DNA from: Ignavibacteriota bacterium
GTDB lineage: Bacteria > Bacteroidota > Ignavibacteria > SZUA-365
Assembly (NCBI GenBank): GCA_016218045.1
Contig: JACRFB010000063.1
Coordinates: 68,226 to 132,225 of the forward strand
DNA length: 64,000 nucleotides
Direction of reading: 5' to 3'
Positions 35,129 through 51,424 of the stretch are shown in pieces. Under the pieces are notes generated by a model, which ran no database searches, was not told the DNA's origin, and saw only the letters and a list, made by a program, of their open reading frames with translations. Every line of letters starts with the position of its first letter. Position 1 is the first letter of the stretch. Position numbers and translations under genes: made by a program.

Positions 35129-35886
35129 CCCTCCCTCGAGGACTTGGCGCGCGCCGTCTCGTCGCGGACCAGCTTCATGAACACGTCCTGCATGCTGTCG
35201 AAGCCGTGCGCGCGCTTGAGTTCACCCGGAGTGCCGAGCGCGATGAGACGGCCGCCGTGCATGATGGAAAGCCGCGAGCAGTATTCGGCCTCGTCCATGT
35301 AGTGCGTCGTGACAAACACCGTGGTCCCCTTTGCGGCGAGTTCGTAAATGAGCCGCCAGAAATTGCGCCGCGAAATGGGATCGACGCCGCCGGTCGGTTC
35401 GTCGAGAAACAGGATGTGCGGATCATGCAGCAGCGCCGTGCCCAGGGCCAGGCGCTGCTTCCAGCCGAGAGGCAGGGAATTGGTCACACGGTCGGCATGT
35501 TCCTCAAGGCGAAGTTCCGCCAGCAGGGCCTCTGTCTTTACTCGCAGTTGTGCGCGTGTCAAACCGTACACGCCCCCGTAGAATTCGATGTTGTTTCTGA
35601 CCGTCAAATCTTCATAAAGCGAGAACTTCTGGCTCATGTATCCTATCGAGGCCTTTACACTCCGCGCTTCGCGCGCGATGTCGAAACCTCCGACACGCGC
35701 GGTACCTCCGCTCGGTTTGAGCAGTCCGCACAGCATCCGTATCACCGTGGTCTTGCCGGCGCCATTCGCACCGAGAAATCCGAACACCTCGCCGCGGTGC
35801 ACCCTGAGCGACACGGAATCCACGGCGCGGAACGCGCCGAAATCCTTTGTGAGCTCGCGCATATCGACAGCAACATCAGTCGTCAT
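35125..35886 (-). CDS. ABC transporter ATP-binding protein
   Basis: Walker A GANGAGKTT, signature LSGGMKQRL-like (LPLGWKQRLALG), Walker B ILFLDEPT. Start taken at MTTDVAVDMREL. Confidence 0.8.
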   Translation of the reverse strand: MTTDVAVDMRELTKDFGAFRAVDSVSLRVHRGEVFGFLGANGAGKTTVIRMLCGLLKPSGGTARVGGFDIAREARSVKASIGYMSQKFSLYEDLTVRNNIEFYGGVYGLTRAQLRVKTEALLAELRLEEHADRVTNSLPLGWKQRLALGTALLHDPHILFLDEPTGGVDPISRRNFWRLIYELAAKGTTVFVTTHYMDEAEYCSRLSIMHGGRLIALGTPGELKRAHGFDSMQDVFMKLVRDETARAKSSREG

Positions 35887-36823
35887 TGGGCGCCGTCTCG
35901 ATAAGGTGGATGAACACGTCCTCCAGCGTTGGCTCCGCGGGTTCAAGCGAGCCCTCACGCAGTTTCAGCGCGCGCTCGGCTGCCGCGCGGCCCGCTCCGT
36001 CGAGCGGCCGTTCCGTGGCCACGTGAACACGATCGCCGAAGCTGTGGACGGATCGTATGCCCGGACCTTCGCCATCGTCGAGTCTGATCAGCGACGAGAA
36101 CGCGTTTCCGTCTGCTCTTTCGCGTGGTGCGCTGTACATCGAGTACGGATACGATGAAATGATCTCGGCGGGTGCGCCCGAGGCGAGAATGCAGCCCTCG
36201 TTCATGATCGAGATGCGGTCGCAGAGCAGGGCTTCATCCATGTACGGCGTCGAGACTAGCACTGTGACACCGCGGTCGCGCATTGCGCGGAGAATGGACC
36301 ACAGCTCCTGCCGCGACACGGGATCGACGCCTGTTGTCGGCTCGTCAAGCACAAGCAACAGCGGATCGTGGATGAGGGCGCAGGACAGCGCGAGCTTCTG
36401 CTTCATGCCGCCGGACAGCCGCCCCGCCAGCCGCGTCGCGAATGGATCGAGCCGGCTGAAACGGTACAGTTCCTTTTTCTTCTCTGTCAACTCCGCCTGG
36501 GGTACGCCGAAGAGGTCCGCAAAAAAATCCAGATTCTGTTCCACCGAAAGATCGGGATAGAGGGAAAAGCGCTGTGGCATGTAGCCGATCTTCGAGCGTA
36601 TCTCGGTGCGGCCTGTGCGCGTTTCGTGGCCGAGCACGGTGACAGTGCCGGCATCCGGCGCAAGCAGCGTAGTGATGATGCGCATCGTCGTCGTCTTGCC
36701 CGCCCCGTCGGGTCCGATAAGTCCGAACAACTCCGCGGGACGAATCTCGAGCGAGACGTCGCGCACCGCTTCGGTTGCGCCGAAAGATTTCGACAAAGAT
36801 GATATGGAAACGGCAGGCGTCAC
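35876..36823 (-). CDS. ABC transporter ATP-binding protein (second NBD subunit)
   Basis: GPDGAGKTT, LSGGMKQKLAL, LLVLDEPT. Probable GTG start at 36823 forming a GTGA overlap with the hlyD-like stop. The ORF-track N-terminus overlaps the upstream gene. Confidence 0.65.
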   Translation of the reverse strand: MTPAVSISSLSKSFGATEAVRDVSLEIRPAELFGLIGPDGAGKTTTMRIITTLLAPDAGTVTVLGHETRTGRTEIRSKIGYMPQRFSLYPDLSVEQNLDFFADLFGVPQAELTEKKKELYRFSRLDPFATRLAGRLSGGMKQKLALSCALIHDPLLLVLDEPTTGVDPVSRQELWSILRAMRDRGVTVLVSTPYMDEALLCDRISIMNEGCILASGAPAEIISSYPYSMYSAPRERADGNAFSSLIRLDDGEGPGIRSVHSFGDRVHVATERPLDGAGRAAAERALKLREGSLEPAEPTLEDVFIHLIETAPNDD

Positions 36824-37707
36824 GGTATGTCGAGTGTCACGGTCAGAGGCATGCCGATCTTGATTTTTCCATCGGGATTGTCGAGCCGCACCTTCGCCGC
36901 AAACACGAGCGTGGTGCGGGTCTCCTCGGTGAGGATGGTCTTGGGTGTGAACTCGGCCTTGTCGGATATCCAGGTCACCGTGCCGTGCAGCGATACATCG
37001 GACGCGCTGTCGATGCGGATGGTCGCCTTCTGTCCGACGGACACCGACGCGAGATCGGTCTCTGCGATGTAGATGCGCGTCCACATACTGCGAAGATCGG
37101 CGATGTCGCAGATGGGTGTGCCGGGCATGGCGAGTTCGCCGGGATCCGCATATCGCACCAGGACACGGCCGTCGAGAGGCGCCACGATGGTCGCCTCGCC
37201 GATCTGCGTCTTCAGGAGGCCGACAGTGGAGGCCGTCTGCGCCTCCTTGCTACCGAGAGCGGCGTGTTGTTTCTGCAGGCTGCGGATTTGGGCATCGGAC
37301 CCGTCGAGCTGTGCGCGTGCGTCGTCGACGGATTGCCTCGTGGTCGCGTTGTCGCGCAGCAGCGCCTCGAGACGCTGCAGGCGCGTGTGCAGATTCTCAC
37401 GCGTGATGCGCGCCGCGGCGATCTGCGCGTCGAGGGCCGCGCGCTGATGCGCCAGTTCCTCGCGAACGGAGCCCGCCTGCGCCGCCTGCAGTTCAAGTTT
37501 GTCGACACGCACAGTGGCAAGGACGGAATCGGCGCGCACGTCGTCGCCGTCGTCGATCAGAACCGAGGTGATGGTGCCCGCCGTCTGTGCGCTTACACGT
37601 ACGATGCGCGCTTCGGCGGTGCCGGTGTACTCGAACGCGGAGTTCTCGCCGCCGCCGCATCCGGCCAGGACCGCGAGGACGAACAGGGAAGAGAGGAATG
37701 GGCGCAT
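36820..37707 (-). CDS. HlyD-family membrane fusion (periplasmic adaptor) protein
   Basis: Lipoprotein-like signal LAVLAGCGG. Coiled-coil region (QAGSVREELAHQRAALDAQIAAARI). C-terminal beta-domain. Confidence 0.7.
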   Translation of the reverse strand: MRPFLSSLFVLAVLAGCGGGENSAFEYTGTAEARIVRVSAQTAGTITSVLIDDGDDVRADSVLATVRVDKLELQAAQAGSVREELAHQRAALDAQIAAARITRENLHTRLQRLEALLRDNATTRQSVDDARAQLDGSDAQIRSLQKQHAALGSKEAQTASTVGLLKTQIGEATIVAPLDGRVLVRYADPGELAMPGTPICDIADLRSMWTRIYIAETDLASVSVGQKATIRIDSASDVSLHGTVTWISDKAEFTPKTILTEETRTTLVFAAKVRLDNPDGKIKIGMPLTVTLDIP

Positions 37708-37754
37708 GGGGAATGTTCTCACTGTGCGGGGAAAGGTGATGCGACGACGGGGTG

Positions 37755-39071
37755 TCATTGTGCGTCTCCGATTTCACGGCCGACGGCCTGTACGAGATCG
37801 ATCCGTTTCAGGAGATACTCGATGCGGGTTTGCGCGTGTTGCAGCAGAGAGCGTGTCAGCGCCGTTTCGGCGTCAAGCACGTCGGCGGGGATGGCTGTGC
37901 CTTCGCGCAGCCGCGCGCGGGCGATGTCGAGGCGCGTGCGCTCCTGCTGTATCTGCCGGTCCAGGAGGCCGATGGTCGCCGCGCGTGTGTCGAGATCGAG
38001 TAGGAGCGCGCGAATGCCGGTTTCGAGGCGGTTGCGCACCTGCTCCACACGAAGGGCCGAGGCACGCTCCTCGAGCTGCGCCTTTTCGATGGCGTGTTTA
38101 TCGGCGGACCAGGCCCAGAGATTCCATTCCATCTTCACACCGGCCGTGTAATAATCCATCCATTCGTTCCGGATCTGATCGACGCCCGGACGAGCGTAGT
38201 GCAGCGACGCGACAGCCGCAACGGTCGGGTACATCGACGACTCGGCCGCGGTGATCCCGAGTTCCGCCGAGCGCTGAGCCGACGCCGCGACCAGCAGGTC
38301 GGCGCGCGACGCGGCGGCCATCGCTATCAGGACTTCAGCGGAGGGGAGGGCGGAAGGTGGCGAAAGGTCTGTCGTGTCCACGCCGCCAATGTCGGTGGCG
38401 CCGGTGAGTTCCACGAGCGAGAGAAGTGCGGTGGCGCGCGCGTGGCGCGCCTGCGTGGCCTCGACATCGAGCTGCAGTATCCGTGTGGACACGAGCAATG
38501 TATCGAAGGCGAGACCCTGACCCTGCTCCGTCAGCGCGCGGCGGAGATGCAGCAGTTCCGCAAGCAGCGCGCGCTGTGACTCGAGGATGCCTGCAGCGTA
38601 TGTGGCCTGCACTGCCGCGTAGTAAAGGCGCGCCGCCGCACAGCGAGCGTCGAAGGCCGCGCCATCGGCCGCGGTCGCAGCGGCCGCGCTGTTTTCACGG
38701 GCGATGCGGTTGTGCGCATCCAGGCGGAATCCGGTGAAGAGCGGCGCGCTGAGGGTGACGGCTGCGTCGGCCACATTGCCGTCGCCGAAGGATATCGTTT
38801 TGACGGGCAGTGGAATGCCTGGAATCTGCAGATCGATTTTTCCGGTCTCGCTGATGCGTGTGTACGAAAACGAGGCGTCGAGGCGCGGCAGCCGCGAGGC
38901 CGAGGTCATGTCGGCCTGTGCGCGCGCCTTCTCGGCGCCGGCGCGGGCGATGCGCACCCCGTGCCCGTATTCCGCGGCCCGGCGCTGCATTTCATCGAGC
39001 GTGACAATGCGCGGCTGCGCCGCTGCAGTGAGCGACAGGAGACAACAGCAGAGGAGGAGTTTTCGAGTCAT
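37755..39071 (-). CDS. TolC-like outer-membrane efflux protein
   Basis: Internal start MTRKLLLCCCLLSLTAAAQP (signal peptide) forming an ATGA overlap with tetR. Two OEP repeats. Confidence 0.7.
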   Translation of the reverse strand: MTRKLLLCCCLLSLTAAAQPRIVTLDEMQRRAAEYGHGVRIARAGAEKARAQADMTSASRLPRLDASFSYTRISETGKIDLQIPGIPLPVKTISFGDGNVADAAVTLSAPLFTGFRLDAHNRIARENSAAAATAADGAAFDARCAAARLYYAAVQATYAAGILESQRALLAELLHLRRALTEQGQGLAFDTLLVSTRILQLDVEATQARHARATALLSLVELTGATDIGGVDTTDLSPPSALPSAEVLIAMAAASRADLLVAASAQRSAELGITAAESSMYPTVAAVASLHYARPGVDQIRNEWMDYYTAGVKMEWNLWAWSADKHAIEKAQLEERASALRVEQVRNRLETGIRALLLDLDTRAATIGLLDRQIQQERTRLDIARARLREGTAIPADVLDAETALTRSLLQHAQTRIEYLLKRIDLVQAVGREIGDAQ

Positions 39072-39712
39072 GCGTGTGTTCTCCGTGTCGACAATCCATG
39101 ATACACGAGGTCGAAAATGTGTTCGCGTCTGCGCGCAGCGAAGGCGGCAGGATCCCCGGCGATGTCGGGGGCGATGCTCTTGAGGAGCGGTATCGCGAGG
39201 TAGAAATAGACGCAGCTCCCGAGTACGGTAATGAGGGTCTGCATCGGATCCACTTTCCGGATTTCCCTGCGCCGGATGGCGCGCTCGACGGCCAGAAGAA
39301 ACGCGCGCGGAGGAAACGCCGGATCGTTCGCCACCCGCGCGAAGTGCACCGCCAGGTTCGTTGCGCCGGTCGACAGTTCGCGTGTCATGAAGCCGACCAG
39401 CGCGGGCGTGCGTTCCAGCATGTCCATGTAGGTGCAAATAAACGCGCGCAATTGCGACGCAAAATCCTTTTCTTTCGACAGGGACGCCGAGAGCACCATA
39501 AAATGTGTGCGCAGCATGTACGAGAATACCTCCTCGTACAGACGGTCCTTGGATCGGAAGTAATAATGCACCAGCGCCGGATTGATCCCCGCGCGCCGCG
39601 CTATGTCACGCATGCGCGCGCCGCTTTTTCCATGTTCCCCGAACACGTCGAGCGCCGCCAGGAAAATGGCGCTTTCGGTGTCGGAGTATTCGCGCTGGTC
39701 GATGCTGATCAT
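39068..39712 (-). CDS. TetR-family transcriptional regulator
   Basis: HTH RMRDIARRAGINPALVHYYFRSKDRLY. First gene of the efflux operon. Confidence 0.8.
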   Translation of the reverse strand: MISIDQREYSDTESAIFLAALDVFGEHGKSGARMRDIARRAGINPALVHYYFRSKDRLYEEVFSYMLRTHFMVLSASLSKEKDFASQLRAFICTYMDMLERTPALVGFMTRELSTGATNLAVHFARVANDPAFPPRAFLLAVERAIRRREIRKVDPMQTLITVLGSCVYFYLAIPLLKSIAPDIAGDPAAFAARRREHIFDLVYHGLSTRRTHA

Positions 39713-39785: not shown

Positions 39786-40319
39786 TCAGAATTCCGCGCG
39801 GTGTATCACCGGGGAACAGGAGGCACAGAATTCCGCGGGTTTGATGTCGATGTCCTCGACGTAGGTCGAGGCGTTCATGACGCAGGGTTCGTCGGCGCAG
39901 TGGCGCAGTCCGTAGGTGTGCCCGAGTTCGTGCAATGCCTCCTTGAATGAACGGCGGCGGAGCAGATGCGACGACGGCGCCAGACCGTAGAGATCGTTGC
40001 GCAGACGGAACGAGGAAAAAATGCAGGCGCGGGCGGCCAGTTGCGCCTGTCCGAAAATGTAGGTGAGCACGGGCAGAAAAAGATCGTGCGAGGTGACGCC
40101 GAGCAGTTTCGTCTTGCCGGGTGGAGCAGTGTCGAGCAGCATCTGCAGGATTCGTCCGCTGTGGTACTGCCTGCGCGAGGCGTCGTATGCCTCGCGGATG
40201 GGGACGGGCAATGCGCCGACCGTGACACGGGCCGCGAGCACCTGGCCCAGATCCGCGGCGAATTCGTCGAGAGACAGGTCGCGGTCGGCTTCGAGCGGGA
40301 TGAGCAGAATGTCCGTCAT
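39786..40319 (-). CDS. Archaemetzincin-family zinc metallopeptidase (M54)
   Basis: HELGHTYGLRHCADEPCVMN is the HEXXHXXGXXH-C-x4-C-x-M archaemetzincin signature. Confidence 0.65.
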   Translation of the reverse strand: MTDILLIPLEADRDLSLDEFAADLGQVLAARVTVGALPVPIREAYDASRRQYHSGRILQMLLDTAPPGKTKLLGVTSHDLFLPVLTYIFGQAQLAARACIFSSFRLRNDLYGLAPSSHLLRRRSFKEALHELGHTYGLRHCADEPCVMNASTYVEDIDIKPAEFCASCSPVIHRAEF

Positions 40320-40332
40320 TCCTTCGTCACCG

Positions 40333-41694
40333 CTATTCCGGCCGCTTCAGTCCGTACTTTTCGATCTTATTGTACAGTGTGACACGATCGATGGCCAGCC
40401 GCTCGGCGGAGCGGGTGATGTTCCAATTCATCTCCGAGAGCACCTGCACGATATGCCTGCGCTCCACATCCGCGAGACTCTCGCCGGCTGCGCCCGCGGC
40501 CCGCGTCGAGAGATGCATGGGCAGATCCTCCTCCTCGATGAAAGGCCGCGACGACACAACCATCGCGCGCTCAACCGCATTCTCGAGTTCACGCACATTG
40601 CCCGGCCACGCGTACGTCGTAAGCAAAGACATGGCGCCTTCGGAAAACTCCTTCGCGGTGCGATTCATCAGCCGCGCGTACTTGTGCACAAAATGTTCCG
40701 CCAGCATCGGTATGTCGCCCCTCCTCTCGCGCAGGGGCGGTATCGTGATCGCAAACACGTTGATGCGGTAGTACAGGTCCTCTCTGAACGTCCCGTCGCG
40801 CACGGCCGCCTCGAGGTCGGCATTGGTCGCACAGATGAGACGGAAATCCACGTGTATGGTCTGCTCGCCGCCCACGCGCTGGAACTGATGCGATTCGAGC
40901 ACGCGCAGCAGATCCACCTGGGTCTTGGGCGCAAGTGTGCCGATTTCGTCCAGGAACAGTGTTCCGCCATTTGCCATTTCGAATTTCCCTTTGCGTCTGT
41001 ACTGCGCGCCCGTGAACGATCCCTTTTCATGTCCGAAGAGTTCGCTCTCGAGCAGCGACTCCGACAGAGCGCCGCAGTTTACGGGGATGATGGGGAAGTA
41101 CTTCCGTGTGCTGTTCGCGTGTATTGCCCGCGCGATCAACTCCTTGCCCGTGCCGCTTTCGCCGCGTATCAGCACGGTCGATTTTGTCGGGGCCACGGTG
41201 CGGACGAGGTCGAATACCTTCACCATCTCCTCGCTCGCTCCGACGATGTCGTCGATATGATGCAGCGCGTCGACGGTCTGGCGGAGCTGCGCATTCTCTC
41301 GCGCGAGGCGTCGCTGCTGCGCCGCGTTGCGTACCATCGTCGAGAGCTCGTCGGGGTCGATCGGTTTGGTTACGTAATCGAAGGCGCCTGCCTTGAGGGC
41401 TCGGACGGCGGTGTCGACCGACGCGAACGCCGTGATGATGATGATGATGATGTCGGTATCGAATTCCCGGATGCGTTCCTGCAGCGCAAGGCCGTCCATG
41501 CCGGGCATCTTGATGTCCAGCAGCACGAGATCGATTCGTTCGCGCTGCAGGATGTCGAGGGCGGCGGCGGCGTTCTCGGCCGTGTGTACGCTGTAGCCGT
41601 CCTCGAGGAACCATTGTTCCAGGGATTCGCGGACGGACGCTTCGTCGTCAACGACGAGCAGGTGTATCGACGAAGTGGAGAGGGGATCGGTCAT
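40333..41694 (-). CDS. Sigma-54-dependent response regulator (NtrC family: REC + AAA+ + Fis-HTH)
   Basis: LLVVDDE...D(54-like) receiver. GESGTGKE Walker A. GAFTGA-like loop (EKGSFTGA). ESELFGHEKGSFTG. C-terminal HTH. ATGA overlap with the kinase gene. Confidence 0.85.
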   Translation of the reverse strand: MTDPLSTSSIHLLVVDDEASVRESLEQWFLEDGYSVHTAENAAAALDILQRERIDLVLLDIKMPGMDGLALQERIREFDTDIIIIIITAFASVDTAVRALKAGAFDYVTKPIDPDELSTMVRNAAQQRRLARENAQLRQTVDALHHIDDIVGASEEMVKVFDLVRTVAPTKSTVLIRGESGTGKELIARAIHANSTRKYFPIIPVNCGALSESLLESELFGHEKGSFTGAQYRRKGKFEMANGGTLFLDEIGTLAPKTQVDLLRVLESHQFQRVGGEQTIHVDFRLICATNADLEAAVRDGTFREDLYYRINVFAITIPPLRERRGDIPMLAEHFVHKYARLMNRTAKEFSEGAMSLLTTYAWPGNVRELENAVERAMVVSSRPFIEEEDLPMHLSTRAAGAAGESLADVERRHIVQVLSEMNWNITRSAERLAIDRVTLYNKIEKYGLKRPE

Positions 41695-43304
41695 GATGCC
41701 TGGTATTCTCTGTGTGTGTTTTCTGTGTCGCCTGAAACAGGAAGGGAGATGATGAAGGAACTGCCGTGTCCGGGCTCGCTCTGCACGGTGATGTCGCCGC
41801 CATGCTGTTTGACTATGCCGTACACGATCGAGAGGCCGAGGCCCGTGCCGAAGCCGCTTTCCTTCGTGGTGAAAAACGGTTCGAAGACGCGCTGCAGATC
41901 GGCGGCCGAGATGCCGATACCGGTGTCGGTGACGCGCAGCAGTGTGCGCCCTGCGTCGGTTGCGGCGTCCACGGTTAACGTGCCGCCGTCCGGCATGGCT
42001 TCGATCGCATTGATGAGCAGCGCGATGAGCACCTGCTGCAACTGCGACTCGTCGCAGTACGCGCGGACGGAAACGGGCGGCGGCTCGTAGCGCACCTCGA
42101 TCTGCTGCAGGTCGATCTGGTGCTGGACGAGGCGCAGCGAGCGCTCGATGAGCGTGTGCAGATTGCAGACCGCCCGCGACTGTGGATGCGCGCGCGCAAA
42201 AAACAGCAGGTTGCGGACGATGTCTCCGCAGCGCCGCGCCTCCTCTGCGATGATGTCGAGGTCGCTATTGATGCGCGCCAGCTTCTCTTGGTCCACAGTG
42301 TCGCGGAGCCGCTTGCGGCTCAATTTCGCAAGAGTCAGAATGCCCGAGAGCGGATTGTTCAACTCGTGTGCAATCATCGAGCTCAACTTGCCGAGCGACG
42401 CCATTTTTTCCATGTGTAGAACCTGCTCCTGCATCGACTGCAGTTCGCGCGTCTTCTGGTTCACCTTCTGCTCGAGTGTGTTCGACCAGTCGAGCAGCTC
42501 GTTGCGCGCGCCGTCCAAGTCAGCCGCCATACGGTTGAAGGCCTCGGCGAGACGCCCGATCTCGTCGGAACGCCGAGTCGTGATGCGGTGCCGCAGGTTT
42601 CCGGAGGCGATTTCGCGCGTGCCCGCGATCACTTGTTTCACCGGCCGATGCACGCCGACAAAGACAAAAATGGCGGAGACCGCGGCGACGGCGAGCAGGG
42701 TCACAACGGCCGAGGCGAGTTGCAGCAGTACACCGTCGTCGATGTGTTTGTCGGCGTATTCGAGACTCATCTGCACGTCGAGCACACCCAGCACCGTCTG
42801 TTCTTCGGAGTGGGCGTGACAGGCGGCATCCCAGCACCCGCGCTCGTTGCGTATCGGGTTGATGAAGCCAAGCACGCGATGACCCGACGGAGCGTAGTAC
42901 TTGCGCGCGTACTGATCGGAACTGGTCTTCACAAAATCGGAACCGCCGCCGTGGCACATGATGCAGGCGTCGGCCTTCACATCCACCACGTGCCCGATCT
43001 CAGAGAGCGAATCCGAATACTTGATCACCCCGCGCTTGTCGTAAATGCGAATGTGATCGATGCCGCGCAGGGATCCGAGATCCTGGATGATGGAACTCAG
43101 CTCCGACGAGTTGTTCTCCGACATACTTCGCCGCAGGGCCTGCTTGGTCATCTCGCTGGTGCGTTCCACCGCCTCCTGCACCGTCTGCTCGAGCGTTTCC
43201 CTCTGCGCGCGGATGCTGAATATCGTCGTCCCCAGCAGCACGACCGCGAGCGAGAGCACGAGAATCGTGACGATCTGAAGACTGAGCGAGCGGAAGATGT
43301 TCAT
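41691..43304 (-). CDS. Sensor histidine kinase with periplasmic domain carrying putative c-type heme-binding motifs
   Basis: TM1 - about 160-aa periplasmic segment with CIMCH (CXXCH) and CWDAACH (CX4CH) - TM2 - HAMP - HisKA (SMIAHELNNP) - HATPase (GTGLGLSIV). The start is approximate, because my hand translation around 43310-43325 disagreed with the ORF track by one base. Confidence 0.75.
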   Translation of the reverse strand: MNIFRSLSLQIVTILVLSLAVVLLGTTIFSIRAQRETLEQTVQEAVERTSEMTKQALRRSMSENNSSELSSIIQDLGSLRGIDHIRIYDKRGVIKYSDSLSEIGHVVDVKADACIMCHGGGSDFVKTSSDQYARKYYAPSGHRVLGFINPIRNERGCWDAACHAHSEEQTVLGVLDVQMSLEYADKHIDDGVLLQLASAVVTLLAVAAVSAIFVFVGVHRPVKQVIAGTREIASGNLRHRITTRRSDEIGRLAEAFNRMAADLDGARNELLDWSNTLEQKVNQKTRELQSMQEQVLHMEKMASLGKLSSMIAHELNNPLSGILTLAKLSRKRLRDTVDQEKLARINSDLDIIAEEARRCGDIVRNLLFFARAHPQSRAVCNLHTLIERSLRLVQHQIDLQQIEVRYEPPPVSVRAYCDESQLQQVLIALLINAIEAMPDGGTLTVDAATDAGRTLLRVTDTGIGISAADLQRVFEPFFTTKESGFGTGLGLSIVYGIVKQHGGDITVQSEPGHGSSFIISLPVSGDTENTHREYQAS

Positions 43305-43430
43305 CGGAGGTCCCGGAAGGGAACAAAGTGGGCGACACAAGCTACCAAATCTCGCGCATGTCCACAACGGCGGACGCGAATGGAAACGGGCCCGAAGGCC
43401 CGTATCCGATCATTACTGAGACCTCGCGGC

Positions 43431-44234
43431 CTACACCTCGGCGTCGGCCGAGCGCGGATACAACACGCCGCGGACAAGTTCCATGTACGCGGCCTCTCCG
43501 AAGGCCTCGTCGAGCGCCGACACTGTCTCGCCGCCGTCGTTGAGGCAGATGCCTCCGGGGGCGAGATGCGTTTCGAGACGGCGTGCTGCGCGGCGCATAA
43601 ACGTCGAGAGCACGGCCTCCTCCGCGATACGCGCGCGGGCCGGAGGTAGCATCGCCGGCCGCTCCGCGTCGTGTTTGGACGGAACGATACAAGCCAGCCA
43701 GCCGAGATCATAGGTGTTGGTGCGCAGGAACACGGGATCCTCACAGAGCTGCCTGTTCTGCCGGACCAGTGTTCCCGTGAGCGGCGACAACACGGGCAGC
43801 ACATTCGTGTGTGTGTAGATCCACGCGATCGGCCTGCCGCGTTCCACGGATTCGCTCATCGCGGGAAACACGATGCGGGCGGATGGCGGGAGCAACAGAG
43901 AGAAGGGATGGGTGATGCCCAGGTACGCGAGTTTGACGTCGTGGAAACGCGCCCAGGTATGGTCCGTCGAGTACGCCAATCCCTCGTGCAGATGCGAGGC
44001 GGTGAAGCCGCGGAGCAGCCGCACAATTGTTTCGTCGCAGGGGACAGGCAGGGGCACCTGCAGCGGCATATCCACTTCCGCGTCGGCCGCCGCGGGTCCC
44101 TGCTTGTCGTCCTTACGGAGCACGTGATCCAGCGGACATCGGTCGCAGTCAAATGCGCGGTCGCAGAGCTTGTAGGTGAGTATGCCCGCGTCCATCCAAA
44201 CGCATTTGCCCTCGGTATTCCTGGAGCCGCTCAT
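43431..44234 (-). CDS. Hypothetical protein with N-terminal Cys cluster and GcvH-like (hybrid-barrel) domain lacking the lipoyl-lysine
   Basis: C-x12-C-x5-C-x2-C near the N-terminus. HTWARFHDVKLAYLGITH...SPLTGTLV...YDLGWLACI parallels GcvH (HEW...GIT...SPVSG...PY..GW), but R replaces the ESVKA lysine. Confidence 0.4.
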   Translation of the reverse strand: MSGSRNTEGKCVWMDAGILTYKLCDRAFDCDRCPLDHVLRKDDKQGPAAADAEVDMPLQVPLPVPCDETIVRLLRGFTASHLHEGLAYSTDHTWARFHDVKLAYLGITHPFSLLLPPSARIVFPAMSESVERGRPIAWIYTHTNVLPVLSPLTGTLVRQNRQLCEDPVFLRTNTYDLGWLACIVPSKHDAERPAMLPPARARIAEEAVLSTFMRRAARRLETHLAPGGICLNDGGETVSALDEAFGEAAYMELVRGVLYPRSADAEV

Positions 44235-44282
44235 GTCTACTCCCGTGAGTCGTGTGAATCCAAGCGTGGTGAATAATAGCGG

Positions 44283-45497
44283 TCAGGAAACGGACACTTC
44301 GACCGTACCTTTCGGTGCTTCGCCTTTCACCGGACGGGCGGCCGAGAGGCGCACGGTCTGGTGTTTCTCCTCGTGCGAGATATCGGCGAAGATCGGGAGA
44401 TGTTTGACCGCGAAGCCGAACACCCAGAAACCGACTGTCACCACTGCAAGCGACACAAAAATCTCGCCGACGGAGGGGAAATACACGCCACCGTAATACG
44501 GTTCAATCGAAGTGAGCGCTACGTTGAGGCGGTTGGTGACAAAACCCAGCACCACCGACATGGCGCAGAGCGACAGGCCGAGACGCGTCTGCCCGAAGCC
44601 ACGGATGTTGAAGAGCACGATCGGCAGGACGAAGAACAGGGCGAGTTCCACGAGCAGCATGATTGTTTGCAGCGAGCCGTCGAGAAGCGCGAACTTGTTG
44701 CCGTGCACCATGTCGATCAAACGCATGGTTACGTACACAGTGGCGACACCGATCATTGCGCGGGCAAGGTCTCGCAGCAATGGCGTCTCGAGCGCCTTGT
44801 TAAAGACACGCGCGCTGAGGTACGACTCGACAATGGTCATCGCCAGGCCCACGGTGACGGCCGACACGAAGAAAAACACCGGCAGCATCGGCGAGTACCA
44901 GAAGGGATGCATTTTCTCGGGGATGATGAGATAGAGACTGCCAAGCGAGGACTGGTGCAGCATCGACAGGAGGATGCCCGCGACAACAAGCGGTATCGTG
45001 ATGGCCTTCATGATCTTGAGCAGGCGTGTCATCTTGAAGCGCTCGAGCACCACCGGACTGAATTCGAGGGCAAGCACCGTGGTGTAGAGCATCACACACC
45101 AGGCCACTTCGAACATGACCGAATGAGGATTCCACATGATGATCGCATGCCAGATCGACCAGGGACGTCCGAGGTCGAACATGAGACCCACGATCACGAG
45201 CAGATAACCGAGGAAGGCCGTCAGTACCGTCGGACGGACGATGGCCTTGAAGCGTTTCAGATTGAACACGTACACAATACCGCACAGAGTGAATCCGCCG
45301 GCGGCCAGACCCACTCCGGTGACAACATCGAAACCGATCCAGATGCCCCACGGTGCGGCATCGGAGAGATTGGTGGCCTTGCCGAGCCCGAAGGCAAAAC
45401 GCATGACGGCCGAGACGAGTCCGCCGAGCACAAAAAATGCGCCGAGGATCTTCCAGAAGGACAAGTGTTTTTTCAGGGATATCATGGACGACCTCAC
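44283..45497 (-). CDS. NrfD/PsrC-family polytopic membrane (quinone-interacting) subunit
   Basis: About 10 TM helices. NrfD-like motifs (SLYLIIPEKMHPFWYSP). 4-nt overlap with the upstream Fe-S gene. Confidence 0.75.
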   Translation of the reverse strand: MRSSMISLKKHLSFWKILGAFFVLGGLVSAVMRFAFGLGKATNLSDAAPWGIWIGFDVVTGVGLAAGGFTLCGIVYVFNLKRFKAIVRPTVLTAFLGYLLVIVGLMFDLGRPWSIWHAIIMWNPHSVMFEVAWCVMLYTTVLALEFSPVVLERFKMTRLLKIMKAITIPLVVAGILLSMLHQSSLGSLYLIIPEKMHPFWYSPMLPVFFFVSAVTVGLAMTIVESYLSARVFNKALETPLLRDLARAMIGVATVYVTMRLIDMVHGNKFALLDGSLQTIMLLVELALFFVLPIVLFNIRGFGQTRLGLSLCAMSVVLGFVTNRLNVALTSIEPYYGGVYFPSVGEIFVSLAVVTVGFWVFGFAVKHLPIFADISHEEKHQTVRLSAARPVKGEAPKGTVEVSVS

Positions 45498-46249
45498 TTC
45501 GTGCTGTTGTTATTGCGTTGGGATTCTTCGAACCGCTTCACTTCTTCGCGACGATGCGTGATCCAGTAGATCGCGGAGAAGGCCGCTCCCGCCGTCACAA
45601 CAACGTCGGGCAGTTTGGAAAGCACATTCCACGTTTTCTGCGGAAGCGCTTCGGATCCGATTTCGGTTTTGAATCCCAGTTTCTCGAAAGGCACGCTCGA
45701 GAGGAAGAGAACGGACATGCCGCCAATTTCCTTTTCGCCATAGATACGATGGACGTAGTTGTCCGGATTCTCGCTGATGCGGCGGTGCGCCTCGGCGAGC
45801 AATTCGTCGCGTTTCCCGAACAGCGTCGCGCCTGCGGGACACGCCTCGCTGCAGGCCGTCGGCTGTCCCTTCGACGTGCGTTCGTCGTAACACATGGTGC
45901 ATTTACGCACGCGGGGATTGTTGCTGCTCCACTCGTACTTCGGAATGTCGAACGGACAGGCGAGCATACAATAGCGGCAGCCGAGGCACTTCGAAGCGTC
46001 GTAGTTCACCGGGCCGGCCTTGGTCTTTTCGAGCGCACCGACGGGGCACACCGAGCCGCAGGCGGGCTCGTTGCAGTGGCGGCACATGCGGCGGACCCAG
46101 GTATCGCCGTATTGTTCGAGCGTCGTGAAATTCTTTTCGTTCAGATTGCGCGCCTCGATCTCGGGGAACCCGTGCGATTTCTGGCAGGCTGTACGGCATT
46201 CGCCGCAGCCCACGCACTGGGTGATGTCGATGAGAAGGGCATAGGACAT
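45494..46249 (-). CDS. NrfC/DmsB/HybA-like 4x[4Fe-4S] ferredoxin subunit, no Tat signal, C-terminal TM anchor
   Basis: Four Cys clusters (CVGCGECRTAC; CRHCNEPACGSVCP; CLGCRYCMLACP; CTMC...CSEACP). Starts directly at MSYALLIDITQC with no twin-arginine leader. Hydrophobic tail VVVTAGAAFSAIYWI. Confidence 0.75.
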   Translation of the reverse strand: MSYALLIDITQCVGCGECRTACQKSHGFPEIEARNLNEKNFTTLEQYGDTWVRRMCRHCNEPACGSVCPVGALEKTKAGPVNYDASKCLGCRYCMLACPFDIPKYEWSSNNPRVRKCTMCYDERTSKGQPTACSEACPAGATLFGKRDELLAEAHRRISENPDNYVHRIYGEKEIGGMSVLFLSSVPFEKLGFKTEIGSEALPQKTWNVLSKLPDVVVTAGAAFSAIYWITHRREEVKRFEESQRNNNSTK

Positions 46250-46356
46250 TGTACTATCCTTGAAATTGTGTGGGTGGTATCAGTCGTCGTGTGGTCAGGG
46301 GAATTGCGGACAGGGAAGAGTCCCGCGGCCGCTGAGCCGGGGCCTCCATCATTTCC

Positions 46357-47025
46357 TCAGCGGAGAAATTCCTGTTCGAAGGTGTGCAGAGCTTCAGTGT
46401 CGAGATGTTCGAGCGAACCGGCAACCGCGACGCCGCCGTCGAGCATGGTCTCGCCTGCAAACGCCGGCTGCATCGCCTTCGCATGGAGGAATTCGCGGAA
46501 ACGCGCCGCCTCATTCCTGATCCACGTCACAGCACTCTCGGCGATCGACATCACGGAGAGGTTTGCCGCGAGCTGATCCGGCGCCACCGAAAACAACCAG
46601 CCCTCATCATATGGATTCGCGTCGATGAGCGCAGGGTTGTCGATCACATCGCGGTTGATCGCGATCACGGTGCCCGAAACCGGGGCGACAAGAGACAAAG
46701 CACGTCCGCCGCGGGACAGTGTGATCACGGGATCTCCCTGATTCACCTTCTGGCCGATGAATGGCAGTGTAACGTTCTCGATTGTGCCGAGCGCCTTCTG
46801 AATAAAATCATCAACACCAACAACCACATCGTCGCCGCCGCTCATGCGCGCCCACGTGTGCGCAGGATGGAAAAATATACCCTTGGGCATACGGACCACA
46901 TCCGACGCCGCTCCCTGCGCCTTCAGGACGGGCGACATCAGCGGATACTTCTTGTGGCGGATCTGAATTACCAGATCGATCGTCAACAGGGTGACGACAA
47001 ACAGGATGACGAATAATGCTACCAT
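46357..47025 (-). CDS. Membrane-anchored GcvH-like (glycine-cleavage H-fold) protein, non-lipoylatable
   Basis: N-terminal TM (VALFVILFVVTLLTIDLVI). HTWARMSGGDDVVVGVDDF...APVSGTVIAINRDV...ANPYDEGWLFSV matches the GcvH fold, but the lipoyl-Lys position is Arg/Gly. Confidence 0.5.
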   Translation of the reverse strand: MVALFVILFVVTLLTIDLVIQIRHKKYPLMSPVLKAQGAASDVVRMPKGIFFHPAHTWARMSGGDDVVVGVDDFIQKALGTIENVTLPFIGQKVNQGDPVITLSRGGRALSLVAPVSGTVIAINRDVIDNPALIDANPYDEGWLFSVAPDQLAANLSVMSIAESAVTWIRNEAARFREFLHAKAMQPAFAGETMLDGGVAVAGSLEHLDTEALHTFEQEFLR

Positions 47026-47084
47026 GACTGTGCTCCTAGAGGGTGTGTAAGTGCGTGTGGTGAATTTCTCATCAGATAACTGTT

Positions 47085-47100
47085 GAAATCATCCGCAATA
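47085..47100 (-). promoter_or_regulatory. Candidate sigma-54 (-24/-12) promoter for the GcvH-like/NrfCD-like operon
   Basis: Minus-strand sequence TGGTGC-GCTTA-TTGCG follows the consensus TGGCAC-N5-TTGCW, with GG and GC 11 nt apart. About 60 nt upstream of the 47025 start, and next to a sigma-54 activator gene. Confidence 0.3.
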
Positions 47101-47242
47101 AGCGCACCAGACTCGTTTGTCTCTTTTTCCGCATTTTTCAACACTTTTTTCTTACATCCCGACCGTTGACAATTCAGCGACTGTTGGATAATTCATCGGG
47201 AATCCAAAGGGGATTTATAAACCGAATGAAAATATTCACATA

Positions 47243-47283
47243 TACAAAAAACGGTGCCGTTGAAATTATCAACGGCACCGTTG
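47243..47283 (-). terminator. Rho-independent terminator downstream of the methyltransferase gene, inside an AT-rich island
   Basis: Perfect 13-bp inverted repeat ACGGTGCCGTTGA / TCAACGGCACCGT with a 5-nt loop. An A-tract on the + strand gives a U-tract for the minus-strand transcript. Confidence 0.5.
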
Positions 47284-47300
47284 TGATATTCATCAGTACG

Positions 47301-47981
47301 TCAGGCGGATCTGAAGAGATAGAGGAACTTCCGGGGGAAGCGAACGGGCAGCAGACGAAGCACGGTGGTGAGTGGTCGCGTCAGAGCTAAGCGAGGGAAT
47401 AATGCCATGAGCCGGAAATGTGTGAGGTAGGGTCCCTCTACCGAACACGTGCCATCGGGCTGCATGGCCAGAATATCAGCCCAGGAATGATAGACCCAGG
47501 AGTCCGTTCGCGAGTGCCCGCCGGAAAGATCGCTGTCGCCGACGAAAGCGACGACACCACCCGGAGCGAGGAGCAACACCATTCGGCGTATATAGTCTCG
47601 CACGTTTTCAATATCACGTGTATTCATCACACTCATGCCCAGCGAGAAGATGCAGTCGAATCTCTCGTTTGTTTCAAACGACAGCGCATCGGCGGCGATG
47701 AAGCCGACCTGCGGGAAGCGTTGCTCCGCGATTGCGATTGCACGTGCACTGATGTCGATTCCCGTCACCGTGCAGCCCGCCTCGTGAAACAGGCCGGAGT
47801 AATACCCTGTGCCGCAGCCTACATCGAGAACCCGCGCACCGGCTTTCAAACCGCAGATACCCATGATGGAGCGAACCGCCCCCATTGAAACTGCTCGGGG
47901 ATAATAGGCGAATTCCGACGTGTTATAGAAATCGTCGTACTGCTCGCGAAGTCTGTCGGTATCTTTGCCGCCGCTGTTCAT
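47301..47981 (-). CDS. Class I SAM-dependent methyltransferase
   Basis: Motif I VLDVGCGTGYYS, post-I GIDIS, motif II/III region. Internal start MNSGGKD was used. Confidence 0.7.
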   Translation of the reverse strand: MNSGGKDTDRLREQYDDFYNTSEFAYYPRAVSMGAVRSIMGICGLKAGARVLDVGCGTGYYSGLFHEAGCTVTGIDISARAIAIAEQRFPQVGFIAADALSFETNERFDCIFSLGMSVMNTRDIENVRDYIRRMVLLLAPGGVVAFVGDSDLSGGHSRTDSWVYHSWADILAMQPDGTCSVEGPYLTHFRLMALFPRLALTRPLTTVLRLLPVRFPRKFLYLFRSA

Positions 47982-48139
47982 TCGTCGCGCGAAAAGTGAG
48001 TGGAAAGCCGGTTGTTTCCAAACGTGTGAAGTGGGATTTTGTAACACTTCGCGGTGCACGCCGGTATTAGGCCGATCCGTGCTGCCGTCCGCGCACGCCA
48101 TTCCGATACTCCCGCCTGTCTCATTCCCCGGGGTTTCCC

Positions 48140-51100
48140 ATGAGAACCATGTTCGACCGCATCATTCTTGCGTGCTGTATAACGCTCGCTCTCGCCGCCG
48201 CCTCGTTTGCGCAGAAGGGTGACGAGAAGAAAAAATCCGATGATCCCTTCTCGCAGGGTACCTTCACGGGATTGAAGTTCCGGGGCATCGGACCCGCTCT
48301 GACCTCGGGGCGTATCGTCGACTTTGCCGTGGATCCGGGCAACCGCGCGCGCTACTTTGTGGCTGTCGCATGCGGCGGCATCTGGCGCACCACAAACGCC
48401 GGCACGAGCTACGAACCGGTGTTTGACGGACAGATGTCGTTCTCGATCGGCTGTCTCGCCATCGATCCGAACAACCCGCACACAGTGTGGGCGGGCACGG
48501 GTGAAAACAACAGCCAGCGAAGTGTCTCCTACGGCGACGGTGTGTATCGCTCCGACGATGGCGGCAATACATGGAAATGTATGGGTCTGAAAAAATCGGA
48601 ACACATCGGAAAGATTGTCATCGATCCGACAAATTCCCTTGTGGTCTACGTCGCGGCGCAAGGTCCGCTGTGGGGGCCGGGCGGAGACCGCGGCCTCTAC
48701 AAAACAACGGACGGCGGCAAGACGTGGAACGCCGTGCTCACCATCAGCGAGAACACGGGCATGACGGATCTTGTCATGGATCCCCGCGATTCGAAGGTGC
48801 TGTATGCCGCCTCCTATCAGCGCCGCAGGCATGTGTGGACGCTTATCAACGGCGGTCCCGAAGCCAACATCTACCGCAGCACCGACGCAGGCGCAAGCTG
48901 GGACACGCTGCGCAGCGGCCTTCCCGACGGCGACAAGGGCAGGATCGGACTCGCGATCTCTCCGGTCAATCCCGATATCGTCTATGCAACCATCGAGGCG
49001 TCTGAAGGCAAGGGCGGTTTCTTCCGCAGCACTAACAGGGGCATGACCTGGGAGAAACGCAACGACTTCGTGTCGGATGCCGCGCAGTATTATCAGGAGC
49101 TCGTGTGTGATCCGAAGGATGCGGACCGCGTGTATTACCTGCACACGATTCTCATGGTCACCGACGACGGCGGCAAGAACTGGCGCGCACTCGGGAACCG
49201 CCACAGGCATGTCGACGATCATGCCATGTGGATCGATCCACGTGATCCCGCGTATTACCTCGTGGGCGGCGACGGCGGCATCTACGAAAGTTTCGATCGC
49301 GGTGCGACGTGGAAGTATGCACCGAATCTTCCCGTGACGCAGTTCTATCGCGTGGCGGTGGACAATGCCGAACCGTTCTATAACATATACGGCGGCACGC
49401 AGGACAACTTCAGTCTCGGCGGCGCGTCACGGACAAACAAATCCGACGGAATCATGAGCGAGGACTGGTTCCTCACCAATGGCGGCGACGGTTTTGAATC
49501 ACAGATCGATCCCACTAATCCCGACATCGTGTACGCGCAGTCGCAGTATGGCGGACTCGTCCGTTTCGACAAGCGCAGCGGCGAGCGTCTCGACATACAG
49601 CCGCAGCCGGCGCCGGGTGAAGAGCCGTATCGGTGGAACTGGGATTCGCCGCTGCTTATCAGTCCGCACAATCCCTCCCGGTTGTACTTCTGCGCGAACC
49701 GTGTGTTCCGCAGCGACGACCGCGGCGCGTCGTGGCGTGCGGTCAGTCCGGATCTCTCGCGGCGTTTAAATCGCGATTCACTCCCCGTGATGGGCCGCGT
49801 CTGGCCGCCGGAAGCCGTCGCCAAAAATGCGTCCACATCCTTCTACGGCAACATCGTTTCCTTTGCGGAATCGCCACTGAAGGAGGGCCTGCTGTTTGTG
49901 GGAACGGACGACGGACTGATCCAGATGAGCCCCGACGGTGGCGCTACCTGGAGGCGTGTCGAGAGCGTGACGGGCGTGCCCGACCTCGCGTACGTCTCGT
50001 GTGTGCTCGTGTCGCAACATACCGCGGGCCGCCTGTACGTATCGTTCGACAATCACAAGATGGCCGACTTCGCGCCCTACGTGTACAGCAGCAGCGACGA
50101 GGGCAGGACATGGAAGTCCATCACCTCGAATCTCCCCGCCAACGGCGCTGTCTACACCCTTGCCGAGGATCACGTCAATCCCAACCTGCTCTTTGCAGGC
50201 ACCGAGTTCGGCATCTTCTTCTCGAACGACGGCGGCGCGAAGTGGATACAGTTGAAGGGTGGAATGCCGCCCATCGCGATACGCGACATCGCGGTGCAGA
50301 AGCGGGAGAACGATCTCGTGCTCGCATCGTTCGGACGCGGCTTCTATGTGCTCGACGACTACTCCGCGCTGCGCACGGCCACGGCGGAACAGCTCGGCTC
50401 AGCCGCGGTGATCTTCCCTGTGCGTGATGCGCTGATGTACATTCCGAGCACGGCACGGTACAAGGGCTATCAGGGCGAAACGTTTTTCACCGCGCCCAAT
50501 CCGGATTTCGGCGCGGTGTTCACGTATTACGTGAAGGACGTCCCGAAGACACGCAAACAACTGCGAAAGGAGGCGGAGAAGGAGGCGGCAAAGAAGAACG
50601 TCGCCCCGCGGTATCCAAGCATCGACGAGTTGCGCGCAGAGGACGAGGAAAAACCCGCGCAGTTCATCTTCACCATCACCGACGCCGCGGGTGCGCCCGT
50701 ACGTCGTCTCTCGACCGCCGCATCAAAAGGCATACAGCGTATCAGTTGGGATTTGCGTTATCCGGATATCAGTCCCGTTCGCGACGTCTCGTCCGCCAAC
50801 AGGGGATCGGGCATGTTTGTCACGCCCGGCGAGTATGCGGTCTCGCTGTCGCTGCTGCACAACGGTCTCGAGACGCCGCTTGCGGGACCCGTCCGATTCA
50901 CCGCCCGCGTACTCAACAACACCACGCTCCCCGCCTCCGACAGGGCCGCGCTTGTGTCGTTCCAGAAGGACGTGGCCACACTGCAGGCCATTGTGCTCGC
51001 CGCCGACCGCTACGCCGGAGAGCTGGCGACACGCCTCGGTTACATCAAGGGTGCGCTTGAAACGGCGACCCGCGCCGACGCCGCGATGCGCGCGCAGCAC

Positions 51101-51424
51101 GGAGCAATGGACAGCACGCTGCGTGTGCTGCGCCGCGCGTTGAACGGTGATCCGGCGAAGTCGCGCCGCAACGTGATAGAAGCACCATCCATCGTCGGCC
51201 GCCTGCAGAACATGGTGTACAGCCAGTGGTCGTCCACCTCTGCGCCAACGGGATTGAACCAGCAGGAATACCGTCACGTGAGCGCCGAGCTGCGCACCGT
51301 CATGGAGACGCTACGGCGGCTGGCCGACCGCGATCTGCCCACGCTCGAGAGGCAGCTCGATACCATCGACGCGCCGTGGACACCCGGCCGCATGCCCGAC
51401 GTCGAAGCGATTCCAAAACGCTGA
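48140..51424 (+). CDS. Secreted sortilin/VPS10-like BNR(Asp-box)-repeat protein (GH74-like two-propeller architecture)
   Basis: Signal peptide ending AAASFAQ. At least 10 Asp-box motifs (SDDGGNTW, TTDGGKTW, STDAGASW, STNRGMTW, TDDGGKNW, SFDRGATW, SDDRGASW, SPDGGATW, SSDEGRTW, SNDGGAKW). Confidence 0.7.
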   Translation: MRTMFDRIILACCITLALAAASFAQKGDEKKKSDDPFSQGTFTGLKFRGIGPALTSGRIVDFAVDPGNRARYFVAVACGGIWRTTNAGTSYEPVFDGQMSFSIGCLAIDPNNPHTVWAGTGENNSQRSVSYGDGVYRSDDGGNTWKCMGLKKSEHIGKIVIDPTNSLVVYVAAQGPLWGPGGDRGLYKTTDGGKTWNAVLTISENTGMTDLVMDPRDSKVLYAASYQRRRHVWTLINGGPEANIYRSTDAGASWDTLRSGLPDGDKGRIGLAISPVNPDIVYATIEASEGKGGFFRSTNRGMTWEKRNDFVSDAAQYYQELVCDPKDADRVYYLHTILMVTDDGGKNWRALGNRHRHVDDHAMWIDPRDPAYYLVGGDGGIYESFDRGATWKYAPNLPVTQFYRVAVDNAEPFYNIYGGTQDNFSLGGASRTNKSDGIMSEDWFLTNGGDGFESQIDPTNPDIVYAQSQYGGLVRFDKRSGERLDIQPQPAPGEEPYRWNWDSPLLISPHNPSRLYFCANRVFRSDDRGASWRAVSPDLSRRLNRDSLPVMGRVWPPEAVAKNASTSFYGNIVSFAESPLKEGLLFVGTDDGLIQMSPDGGATWRRVESVTGVPDLAYVSCVLVSQHTAGRLYVSFDNHKMADFAPYVYSSSDEGRTWKSITSNLPANGAVYTLAEDHVNPNLLFAGTEFGIFFSNDGGAKWIQLKGGMPPIAIRDIAVQKRENDLVLASFGRGFYVLDDYSALRTATAEQLGSAAVIFPVRDALMYIPSTARYKGYQGETFFTAPNPDFGAVFTYYVKDVPKTRKQLRKEAEKEAAKKNVAPRYPSIDELRAEDEEKPAQFIFTITDAAGAPVRRLSTAASKGIQRISWDLRYPDISPVRDVSSANRGSGMFVTPGEYAVSLSLLHNGLETPLAGPVRFTARVLNNTTLPASDRAALVSFQKDVATLQAIVLAADRYAGELATRLGYIKGALETATRADAAMRAQHGAMDSTLRVLRRALNGDPAKSRRNVIEAPSIVGRLQNMVYSQWSSTSAPTGLNQQEYRHVSAELRTVMETLRRLADRDLPTLERQLDTIDAPWTPGRMPDVEAIPKR

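Follow-up and report, generated by a model that had tools for sequence, protein, structure and literature searches.

Many anaerobic and alternative respiratory chains interact with quinones through NrfD-type modules, whose energy coupling is still a matter of debate. Among the described systems, the closest to the locus considered here are the HmcABCDEF/NhcABCD complexes of sulfate reducers and the HybA/HybB pair of Escherichia coli hydrogenase 2. The locus lies in a stretch of 64,000 nucleotides, hereafter the window, from an Ignavibacteriota bacterium (GenBank assembly GCA_016218045.1, contig JACRFB010000063.1, positions 68,226 to 132,225 of the forward strand), in which seven co-oriented genes run on the minus strand from 47025 down to 39786. 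Based on Pfam and NCBIfam hidden Markov model (HMM) assignments, they encode a membrane-anchored protein with the fold of the glycine cleavage protein GcvH (GcvHm), an Fe-S subunit, an NrfD membrane subunit, a soluble GcvH-fold protein with an N-terminal Cys4 motif (GcvHc), a sensor histidine kinase (HK), an NtrC-type response regulator (RR) and an archaemetzincin (peptidase family M54). Judged from its recurrence in related genomes, this seven-gene set is a conserved cassette. We propose that it encodes a sigma-54-controlled module of the HmcBC/HybAB type, which would carry electrons from quinone to periplasmic haem and would be equipped with new cytoplasmic GcvH-fold accessory subunits, a reading to which we give about an even chance of being correct.

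HmcB and HmcC are the best NCBIfam matches of the cassette core (239 and 329 bits). HybA and HybB are the second best and, like the cassette, combine a four-cluster Fe-S protein carrying a C-terminal helix with a ten-helix NrfD protein. All core proteins fall under the NCBIfam equivalog cut-offs and are relatives of HmcBC, HybAB and GcvH, not members of these families. In contrast to Hmc, the window has no HmcA, and no locus has HmcD, HmcE or HmcF (a cytochrome b and a CCG protein); the GcvH-fold proteins stand where Hmc has its cytoplasmic module, and the cassette adds a sigma-54 two-component system and the M54 peptidase. Compared with HybA/HybB, the cassette is without hydrogenase subunits and the Fe-S subunit of the window is without a twin-arginine translocation (Tat) signal. 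The subunit families are known, but their combination, the cis-element described below and the occurrence of non-lipoylated H-protein-fold subunits on an NrfD module appear to be undescribed in the literature searched: no such complex is among those covered by a review of the NrfD family, and genome papers mentioning NrfD-like proteins describe other clusters. The statement of the first-pass annotation that it knew of no described complex pairing NrfCD-like subunits with GcvH-fold proteins is in line with this.

A scan of one genome per species returned 474 places encoding a relative of GcvHc. The best 80 of these, together with loci from an exact look-up, gave 82 distinct loci that were mapped by BLAST with the window proteins. 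A GcvHm-type protein was found in 78 of them, NrfD in 73, the kinase and the regulator in 72 each, GcvHc in 69, the Fe-S subunit in 68 and M54 in 59; given that many contigs end early, these counts are lower bounds. The loci belong to at least nine phyla, namely Bacteroidota, Ignavibacteria, Kryptoniota, Gemmatimonadota, Acidobacteriota, Planctomycetota, Myxococcota, Calditrichota and Eisenbacteria. Also, a search begun from the kinase sensor domain alone returns loci with the Fe-S, NrfD, kinase, regulator, M54 and GcvH components. The kinase and regulator genes adjoin the module in collinear as well as divergent layouts, and the M54 gene, which in the window starts 13 nt after the regulator stop codon, directly follows the regulator in 59 of the 69 loci with enough sequence. 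A survey of gene neighbourhoods, proposed by the first-pass annotation as a check, shows the gene set to recur widely. The profile searches likewise bear out the six minus-strand genes it had listed and the identities given to them, with PF01597 matched by both GcvH-like proteins, PF03916 by NrfD and Fer4_11 by the Fe-S subunit. Its account needs correction on three points: the M54 gene is a seventh conserved member, the activator gene falls outside the range of 41691-47110 given for the cluster, and only two 4-nt overlaps (at the FeS/NrfD and HK/RR junctions) are seen where three were claimed.

Table 1. Genes and candidate regulatory elements of the cassette, in window coordinates.
Feature	Position	Strand	Details
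GcvHm, GcvH-fold protein with one N-terminal membrane helix	46357-47025	-	222 aa; PF01597 E=4.6e-22
Fe-S subunit, HmcB/HybA-type, four [4Fe-4S] motifs	45494-46249	-	251 aa; Fer4_11
NrfD, HmcC/HybB-type membrane subunit	44283-45497	-	404 aa; PF03916 E=9.4e-19
GcvHc, soluble GcvH-fold protein with N-terminal Cys4 motif	43431-44234	-	267 aa; PF01597 E=3.4e-11
Sensor histidine kinase, HAMP/HisKA/HATPase	41691-43367	-	558 aa; likely start is the ATG at 43304
NtrC-type response regulator	40333-41694	-	453 aa; receiver, sigma-54 AAA+ and HTH_8
Archaemetzincin (peptidase M54)	39786-40319	-	177 aa; PF07998
Candidate sigma-54 -24/-12 promoter, TGGTGCgcttaTTGCG	47109-47094	-	GG-N10-GC
Palindrome cluster YGTTGA-N5-TCAACRG, candidate activator sites	47181-47295	-	two more copies at 47058-47097

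The Fe-S subunit is a four-cluster ferredoxin of the NrfC/PsrB type (Fer4_11, 70.9 bits), with cysteines at C12/15/18/22, C56/59/64/68, C88/91/94/98 and C117/120/133/137. It scores 239 bits against HmcB (cut-off 420) and 204 bits against HybA (cut-off 263), and its alignment to these models begins at model position 36-40; the best solved relative is FdnH (1kqf_B, E=7.8e-29). With the first cluster motif at residue 12, there is no room for a signal peptide. Two classes of this subunit are found among the related loci. The first carries RRxF(L/V)K Tat signals and occurs in Planctomycetota and in some Acidobacteriota, Gemmatimonadota and Myxococcota, whereas the second is Tat-less, starts a few residues before the first cluster motif and comprises the proteins of the window, of Kryptoniota and of most Bacteroidota and Ignavibacteria loci, as well as those of lineages in which NrfD is fused to haem domains. 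Behind their C-terminal helix, the Tat-less proteins have a near-invariant (W)W(I/L)TNRR tail (window 45494-45560, minus strand; loci L001-L086), which in the window protein takes the form of the positively charged YWITHRREEV. Tat-signal orthologues have no conserved RR at this tail. A positive tail after the C-terminal helix predicts that the Fe-S domain lies outside.

The NrfD subunit of the window is a member of its family (PF03916, 68.6 bits against a cut-off of 25.8), is free of haem motifs and reaches neither the HmcC (328.6 bits, cut-off 550) nor the HybB (283.8 bits, cut-off 450) threshold. Ten helices are present in its orthologues, and the window protein shows nine peaks plus one helix assigned by homology. 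Counts of lysine and arginine in the loops give the canonical N-in orientation in every class, Tat and Tat-less alike. In locus L087 a single polypeptide joins a Tat signal, the Fe-S domain, a helix, a cytoplasmic linker and NrfD, and where NrfD is fused to haem domains an eleventh helix puts these outside. In NrfD complexes the quinone site is located at the P-side interface with the Fe-S subunit (PMC13059093, PMC8076601). The GcvH-fold domains are predicted to be cytoplasmic in all classes, following either one positive-flanked helix or a two-helix hairpin, and the same GcvH-fold proteins also accompany Tat-exported Fe-S subunits. [quoted passage not shown] As a possible unconventional feature, the Tat-less Fe-S subunit might reach the periplasm with no N-terminal signal.

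Haem partners are present in several lineages. In planctomycete-type loci (L005, L038, L075, L077 and L083) the gene after NrfD encodes a class III cytochrome with 13 or 16 haems, so that a trio like HmcABC results, and in acidobacterial, myxobacterial and Eisenbacteria-labelled loci NrfD has a C-terminal domain with three or six haem motifs. One or other of these two arrangements, a separate 13-16-haem cytochrome or an NrfD-fused haem domain, is present in about 15 of the 82 loci. Multihaem cytochrome genes border some of the Ignavibacteria and Acidobacteria loci, and one variant has a 105-aa monohaem cytochrome c ahead of the Fe-S gene. In the acidobacterial locus L091 (1-18816) the cassette is part of an island that also encodes a Rieske protein and cytochrome b, five or more multihaem cytochromes and a fusion of multihaem and Ni_hydr_CYTB domains. 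No open reading frame for a multihaem cytochrome, a molybdopterin subunit or a hydrogenase adjoins the cluster of the window; no multihaem reading frame is present in the whole 64 kb, where the kinase is the only real gene with haem motifs. The first-pass annotation had named a molybdopterin or hydrogenase catalytic subunit recurring beside homologues as evidence against its proposal, and none was found in the 82 loci; the large flanking reading frames tested encode unrelated proteins (sortilin/BNR, M23, helicase and multicopper oxidase). The description of the module as an orphan without a cytochrome partner accordingly holds for the window and some lineages, but not for the approximately 15 loci above, nor for the few more that are flanked by cytochromes.

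Known proteins with the H-protein fold include GcvH itself and the lipoate-binding LbpA proteins, which associate with sHdr sulfur oxidation. The cassette proteins share this fold (TM-score 0.8-0.9) and, like LbpA, are tied to a redox system and not to glycine cleavage, but they differ from GcvH and LbpA in lacking the lipoyl lysine, in an added membrane anchor or Cys4 module and in a C-terminal DGG extension. In an alignment to solved H-proteins, the lipoyl-lysine position is occupied by glycine in GcvHm and by threonine in GcvHc. The first-pass annotation had called both proteins non-lipoylatable, and this loss proves to be family-wide, as a lysine is found at the position in only 4 of 88 GcvHm-type and none of 40 GcvHc-type proteins of the related loci. 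With 73.4 bits (GcvHm) and 37.2 bits (GcvHc), both miss the TIGR00527 GcvH equivalog cut-off of 115.85 and share with GcvH the fold and the PF01597 domain only. GcvHm has an N-terminal hydrophobic helix followed by RHKK. GcvHc carries the N-terminal motif C-x12-C-x5-C-x2-C, in the form CxWMxAGx3YKLCDx4Cx2C, and its AlphaFold2 (AF2) model (pLDDT 85.6) superimposes on solved H-proteins, with the Cys4 segment at low confidence and a C-terminal helical extension that has no solved counterpart. An (N/L)DGG motif in this extension, NDGG in the window GcvHc, is common to both proteins and is kept in 83 of 88 GcvHm-type and 35 of 40 GcvHc-type members; by these shared sequence features, GcvHm and GcvHc are paralogues. 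Run against 1.84 billion cluster representatives, a GcvHc family profile matched 909 at E<=1e-30. At 50% identity the Cys4 GcvH-fold protein thus makes up approximately 900 clusters, whose database names are "glycine cleavage H" or "hypothetical" only.

Further variants of these proteins were observed. A third GcvH-fold paralogue with a single N-terminal helix of the ATKGIEYLL type and a DGG extension is present in L013, L018, L024, L031, L047, L055 and L056, and protein P0237 is a tandem duplication of this type. In P0199 (450 aa) the CxWMxAGx3(F/Y)KLCD motif is duplicated and accompanied by more Cys-rich stretches before one GcvH domain, so that the Cys module behaves as an independent, repeatable unit. 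P0278 (1391 aa) combines three non-lipoylatable GcvH-like domains with an FAD-linked oxidase, a 4Fe-4S dicluster and two CCG (HdrD-like) domains, and is another instance of H-protein-fold domains joined to a redox enzyme. It was considered as a Rosetta-stone fusion for the cassette and set aside, being without the DGG extension; its high profile score is due to the three generic H-protein domains.

The kinase consists of a helix, a periplasmic single-Cache/PDC domain with a CxxCH and a Cx4CH motif (CIMCH and CWDAACH in the window), a second helix and the HAMP, HisKA and HATPase domains. Both CxxCH and NEPxCxxAxCHxHP are kept in 64 orthologues. AF2 modelled the N-terminal part (pLDDT 84) as a PDC/single-Cache domain between two long helices. 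With this model, Foldseek matched the sensors WalK, CitA and KinD as well as two haem-c sensor domains from Geobacter, those of GSU0935 and GSU0582 (3b42 and 3b47, E 3.5e-5 to 5.7e-4); a weak PF21563 match covers the Cx4CH stretch. Given the conserved motifs and the modelled fold, which matches haem-c sensor domains, the kinase is predicted to be a haem-c sensor. It resembles the periplasmic haem-c PAS-like domain (PF21563) of these two Geobacter chemoreceptors, but sits on a HAMP kinase that feeds a sigma-54 activator, has two Cys/His haem-type motifs and always stands beside the FeS-NrfD pair. The regulator is of the NtrC type (PF00072, 119 bits; PF00158, 237 bits; PF02954, 44.6 bits), with a GSFTGA loop, the receiver aspartate in LLDIKMPGMDG and a Fis-type HTH. 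The last gene encodes an archaemetzincin (PF07998, 74.7 bits against a cut-off of 24.4) with the full signature HELGHTYGLRHCx4CVMx17CxxC.

Two kinds of conserved elements lie upstream of the operon. The candidate promoter TGGTGCgcttaTTGCG is placed 70 nt before the first start codon, and its GG-N10-GC with ATTGC can be aligned with the same element in L001, L003 and L009, although the proteins of these three loci are only about 40% identical to those of the window. A promoter score of at least 10 out of 12 was found upstream of the structural genes in 19 of 74 loci, compared with 1.75% of random 450-nt segments. The window site alone is weak (9 of 12 positions); a search for TGGCAC-N5-TTGCW with up to two mismatches did not pick it up and gave no enrichment in the window. 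It is accepted because of its aligned position in four loci and the palindromes upstream. The candidate -24/-12 promoter of the first-pass annotation is thus retained.

The palindromes comprise a perfect copy at 47257-47274 and related copies at 47278-47295, 47181-47198, 47080-47097 and 47058-47075, the last two of which overlap or follow the promoter. These five lie within 240 bp (47058-47296), compared with six weak matches in the other 63.7 kb. Over 73 loci, the 450 bp before the operon hold 2.66 sites/kb, compared with 0.12/kb elsewhere, a 22-fold difference. With at most one mismatch, about 50 sites were found in 1.3 Mb, almost all of them 130-440 bp before the first structural gene and in every phylum sampled; L091 has further copies before the Fe-S gene and before a 101-aa cytochrome c gene. 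This distribution of TGTTGA-N5-TCAACA is what would be expected of upstream activating sites for the co-encoded activator, whose sequence is 61-65% identical across phyla and which would bind there. Because the palindrome is nearly confined to the region before the operon, where a -24/-12 promoter accompanies it, the cassette would be the main local target of its regulator and is probably self-regulated. The proposal that expression is tied to a haem-sensing two-component system is supported by the conserved -24/-12 element and by the confinement of the palindrome across phyla. A hairpin followed by a T-run (47250-47282, minus strand) lies after the upstream methyltransferase gene and is terminator-like; its stem holds the perfect palindrome CGTTGATAATTTCAACGG, L001 is alike, and the element may be both a terminator and an activator-binding site.

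As for the direction of electron flow and the partners involved, we infer that the Fe-S protein, seated on the NrfD subunit, would react with the menaquinone pool at a periplasmic-face site and that, through the pair, electrons would pass between quinol/quinone and c-type haem proteins of the periplasm. Elsewhere among the phyla these haem partners would be part of the cassette itself, as 13-16-haem cytochromes, NrfD-fused haems or small cytochromes nearby; given that the kinase is the only haem-c protein of the window cassette, any other partner there must be encoded elsewhere. The two non-lipoylatable GcvH-fold paralogues would act as accessory subunits on the cytoplasmic side, one anchored and one with a Cys4 metal site. 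With its haem-c Cache domain the kinase could sense a haem ligand or the redox state of the periplasm, and it would phosphorylate the regulator, which would bind the TGTTGA-N5-TCAACA sites and fire the -24/-12 promoter, the M54 peptidase presumably being co-transcribed with the rest.

Several observations weigh against this proposal. In most Bacteroidota and Ignavibacteria loci, the window included, the Fe-S subunit has no Tat signal, and the cassette encodes no Tat-bearing partner, which leaves unexplained how a cofactor-loaded Fe-S domain gets to the periplasm. Apart from the kinase, the 64-kb window encodes no periplasmic electron partner. GG-N10-GC was not found upstream in one AT-rich Bacteroidota/Kryptoniota clade, with L029 showing N9-spaced look-alikes only. 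All related loci, like the named matches, are from metagenome-assembled genomes, with no cultured carrier found, and the support is genomic throughout. The need for two or three GcvH-fold proteins and a cytoplasmic metalloprotease is unexplained, although no rival accounts for them or for the Cys4 site either. Finally, the tight linkage of the kinase and regulator across phyla (72 of 82 loci) suits a sensory role at least as well. In such a role, the FeS-NrfD pair would serve as a wire between the menaquinone pool and the kinase's haem-c domain, so that the kinase would report the redox state of the quinone pool; the cassette as a whole would then be a new kind of signal-transduction device and not a respiratory enzyme, with the GcvH-fold proteins, one of them bearing Cys4, and the archaemetzincin as cytoplasmic transducer or reset parts. 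Respiratory components that feed kinases have precedents in cbb3-PrrBA and TorC-TorS. The kinase sensor type was seen only beside FeS-NrfD, the kinase is the only haem-c protein of the window and locally the cassette is the sole target of the palindrome. Four Fe-S clusters, a ten-helix NrfD and up to 16 extra haems are heavy equipment for a sensor, though, and in L091 the cassette belongs to a respiratory island in which a cytochrome c gene has the same upstream site. We consider both the wire and the wider signalling device rather unlikely.

The export problem would be solved if the Tat-less Fe-S subunit hitch-hiked with a Tat-bearing catalytic subunit encoded elsewhere, in the manner of FdnH, DmsB or PsrB, with the cassette serving as the membrane anchor of an unlinked enzyme. 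FdnH is Tat-less and C-tail-anchored and is exported together with FdnG; more generally, Fe-S subunits that work without a catalytic partner (NrfC, HybA, HmcB) bring a Tat signal of their own, which is often missing where such a partner exists. Since FdnH is the nearest solved relative of the window protein, such a partner is a serious rival. No such gene adjoins any of the 82 loci, where the large neighbours tested are unrelated, sister lineages have their own Tat signal and pair with cytochromes instead of enzymes, and the top NCBIfam scores are for HmcB and HybA, which are partners of cytochromes or a hydrogenase and not of a molybdoenzyme; an unlinked enzyme is thus, in our estimate, less probable still than a sensory role. 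Least probable of the three is that the module faces the cytoplasm, as the first-pass annotation had suggested, so that a tail-anchored Fe-S subunit would exchange electrons with the cytoplasmic GcvH-fold proteins. This would agree with the missing signal peptide, with the predicted cytoplasmic location of all GcvH-fold domains and with the conserved Cys4 motif of GcvHc, a possible binding site for Fe or an Fe-S cluster. NrfD complexes that face the N side are also conceivable, with SoeABC being the only one so proposed, and its peripheral subunits are without a Tat signal like the Fe-S subunit of the window. SoeABC is expected to need an inverted NrfD subunit (PMC8076601), whereas the charge bias of the cassette NrfD is canonical in both classes, and the cassette has no molybdopterin subunit. 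The NRR-rich tail after the Fe-S helix, the Tat-bearing orthologues with the same GcvH-fold proteins beside them, the fusion of Tat signal, Fe-S domain, membrane helix and NrfD in L087, and the Tat-less Fe-S subunits beside NrfD proteins with periplasmic haems all argue for the periplasmic side, and the suggestion is not upheld.

If the proposed quinone-to-haem module is correct, the cassette would add a widespread form of NrfD module with its own haem-based regulator and a very specific cis-element. The H-protein fold, known mainly as a lipoyl carrier, would here provide new cytoplasmic subunits, and bacterial archaemetzincins gain a defined genomic context. The locus also raises a question of cell biology, namely how a Tat-less four-cluster Fe-S protein is placed at the periplasmic face. 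The signature of palindrome and -24/-12 promoter makes the regulon searchable in any complete genome. The interest of the system comes from its wide spread, sharp definition and tractability, and is tempered by the familiar core module, the cytochrome partners of sister lineages and the genomic nature of the evidence.

The surroundings of the cassette are lineage-specific. In the window it is flanked upstream by an S-adenosylmethionine (SAM) methyltransferase gene (47301-48101, minus strand) and a gene for a 1094-aa BNR/sortilin-like protein (48140-51424, plus strand), and on the other side by a TetR/outer-membrane-factor unit (34007-39712, minus strand), followed in L001 by efflux adaptor and ABC genes. 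These neighbours recur in L001 and partly in L003 and L009, a synteny outside the conserved set. The methyltransferase was considered as a cassette member and dropped, as it is present only in close relatives; two upstream genes of another clade, encoding proteins of 226 aa and 880 aa that are aldolase-like and phosphoesterase-like by sequence reading only, were dropped as well. Elsewhere, the window contains an open reading frame of 2129 aa (56702-63091, plus strand).

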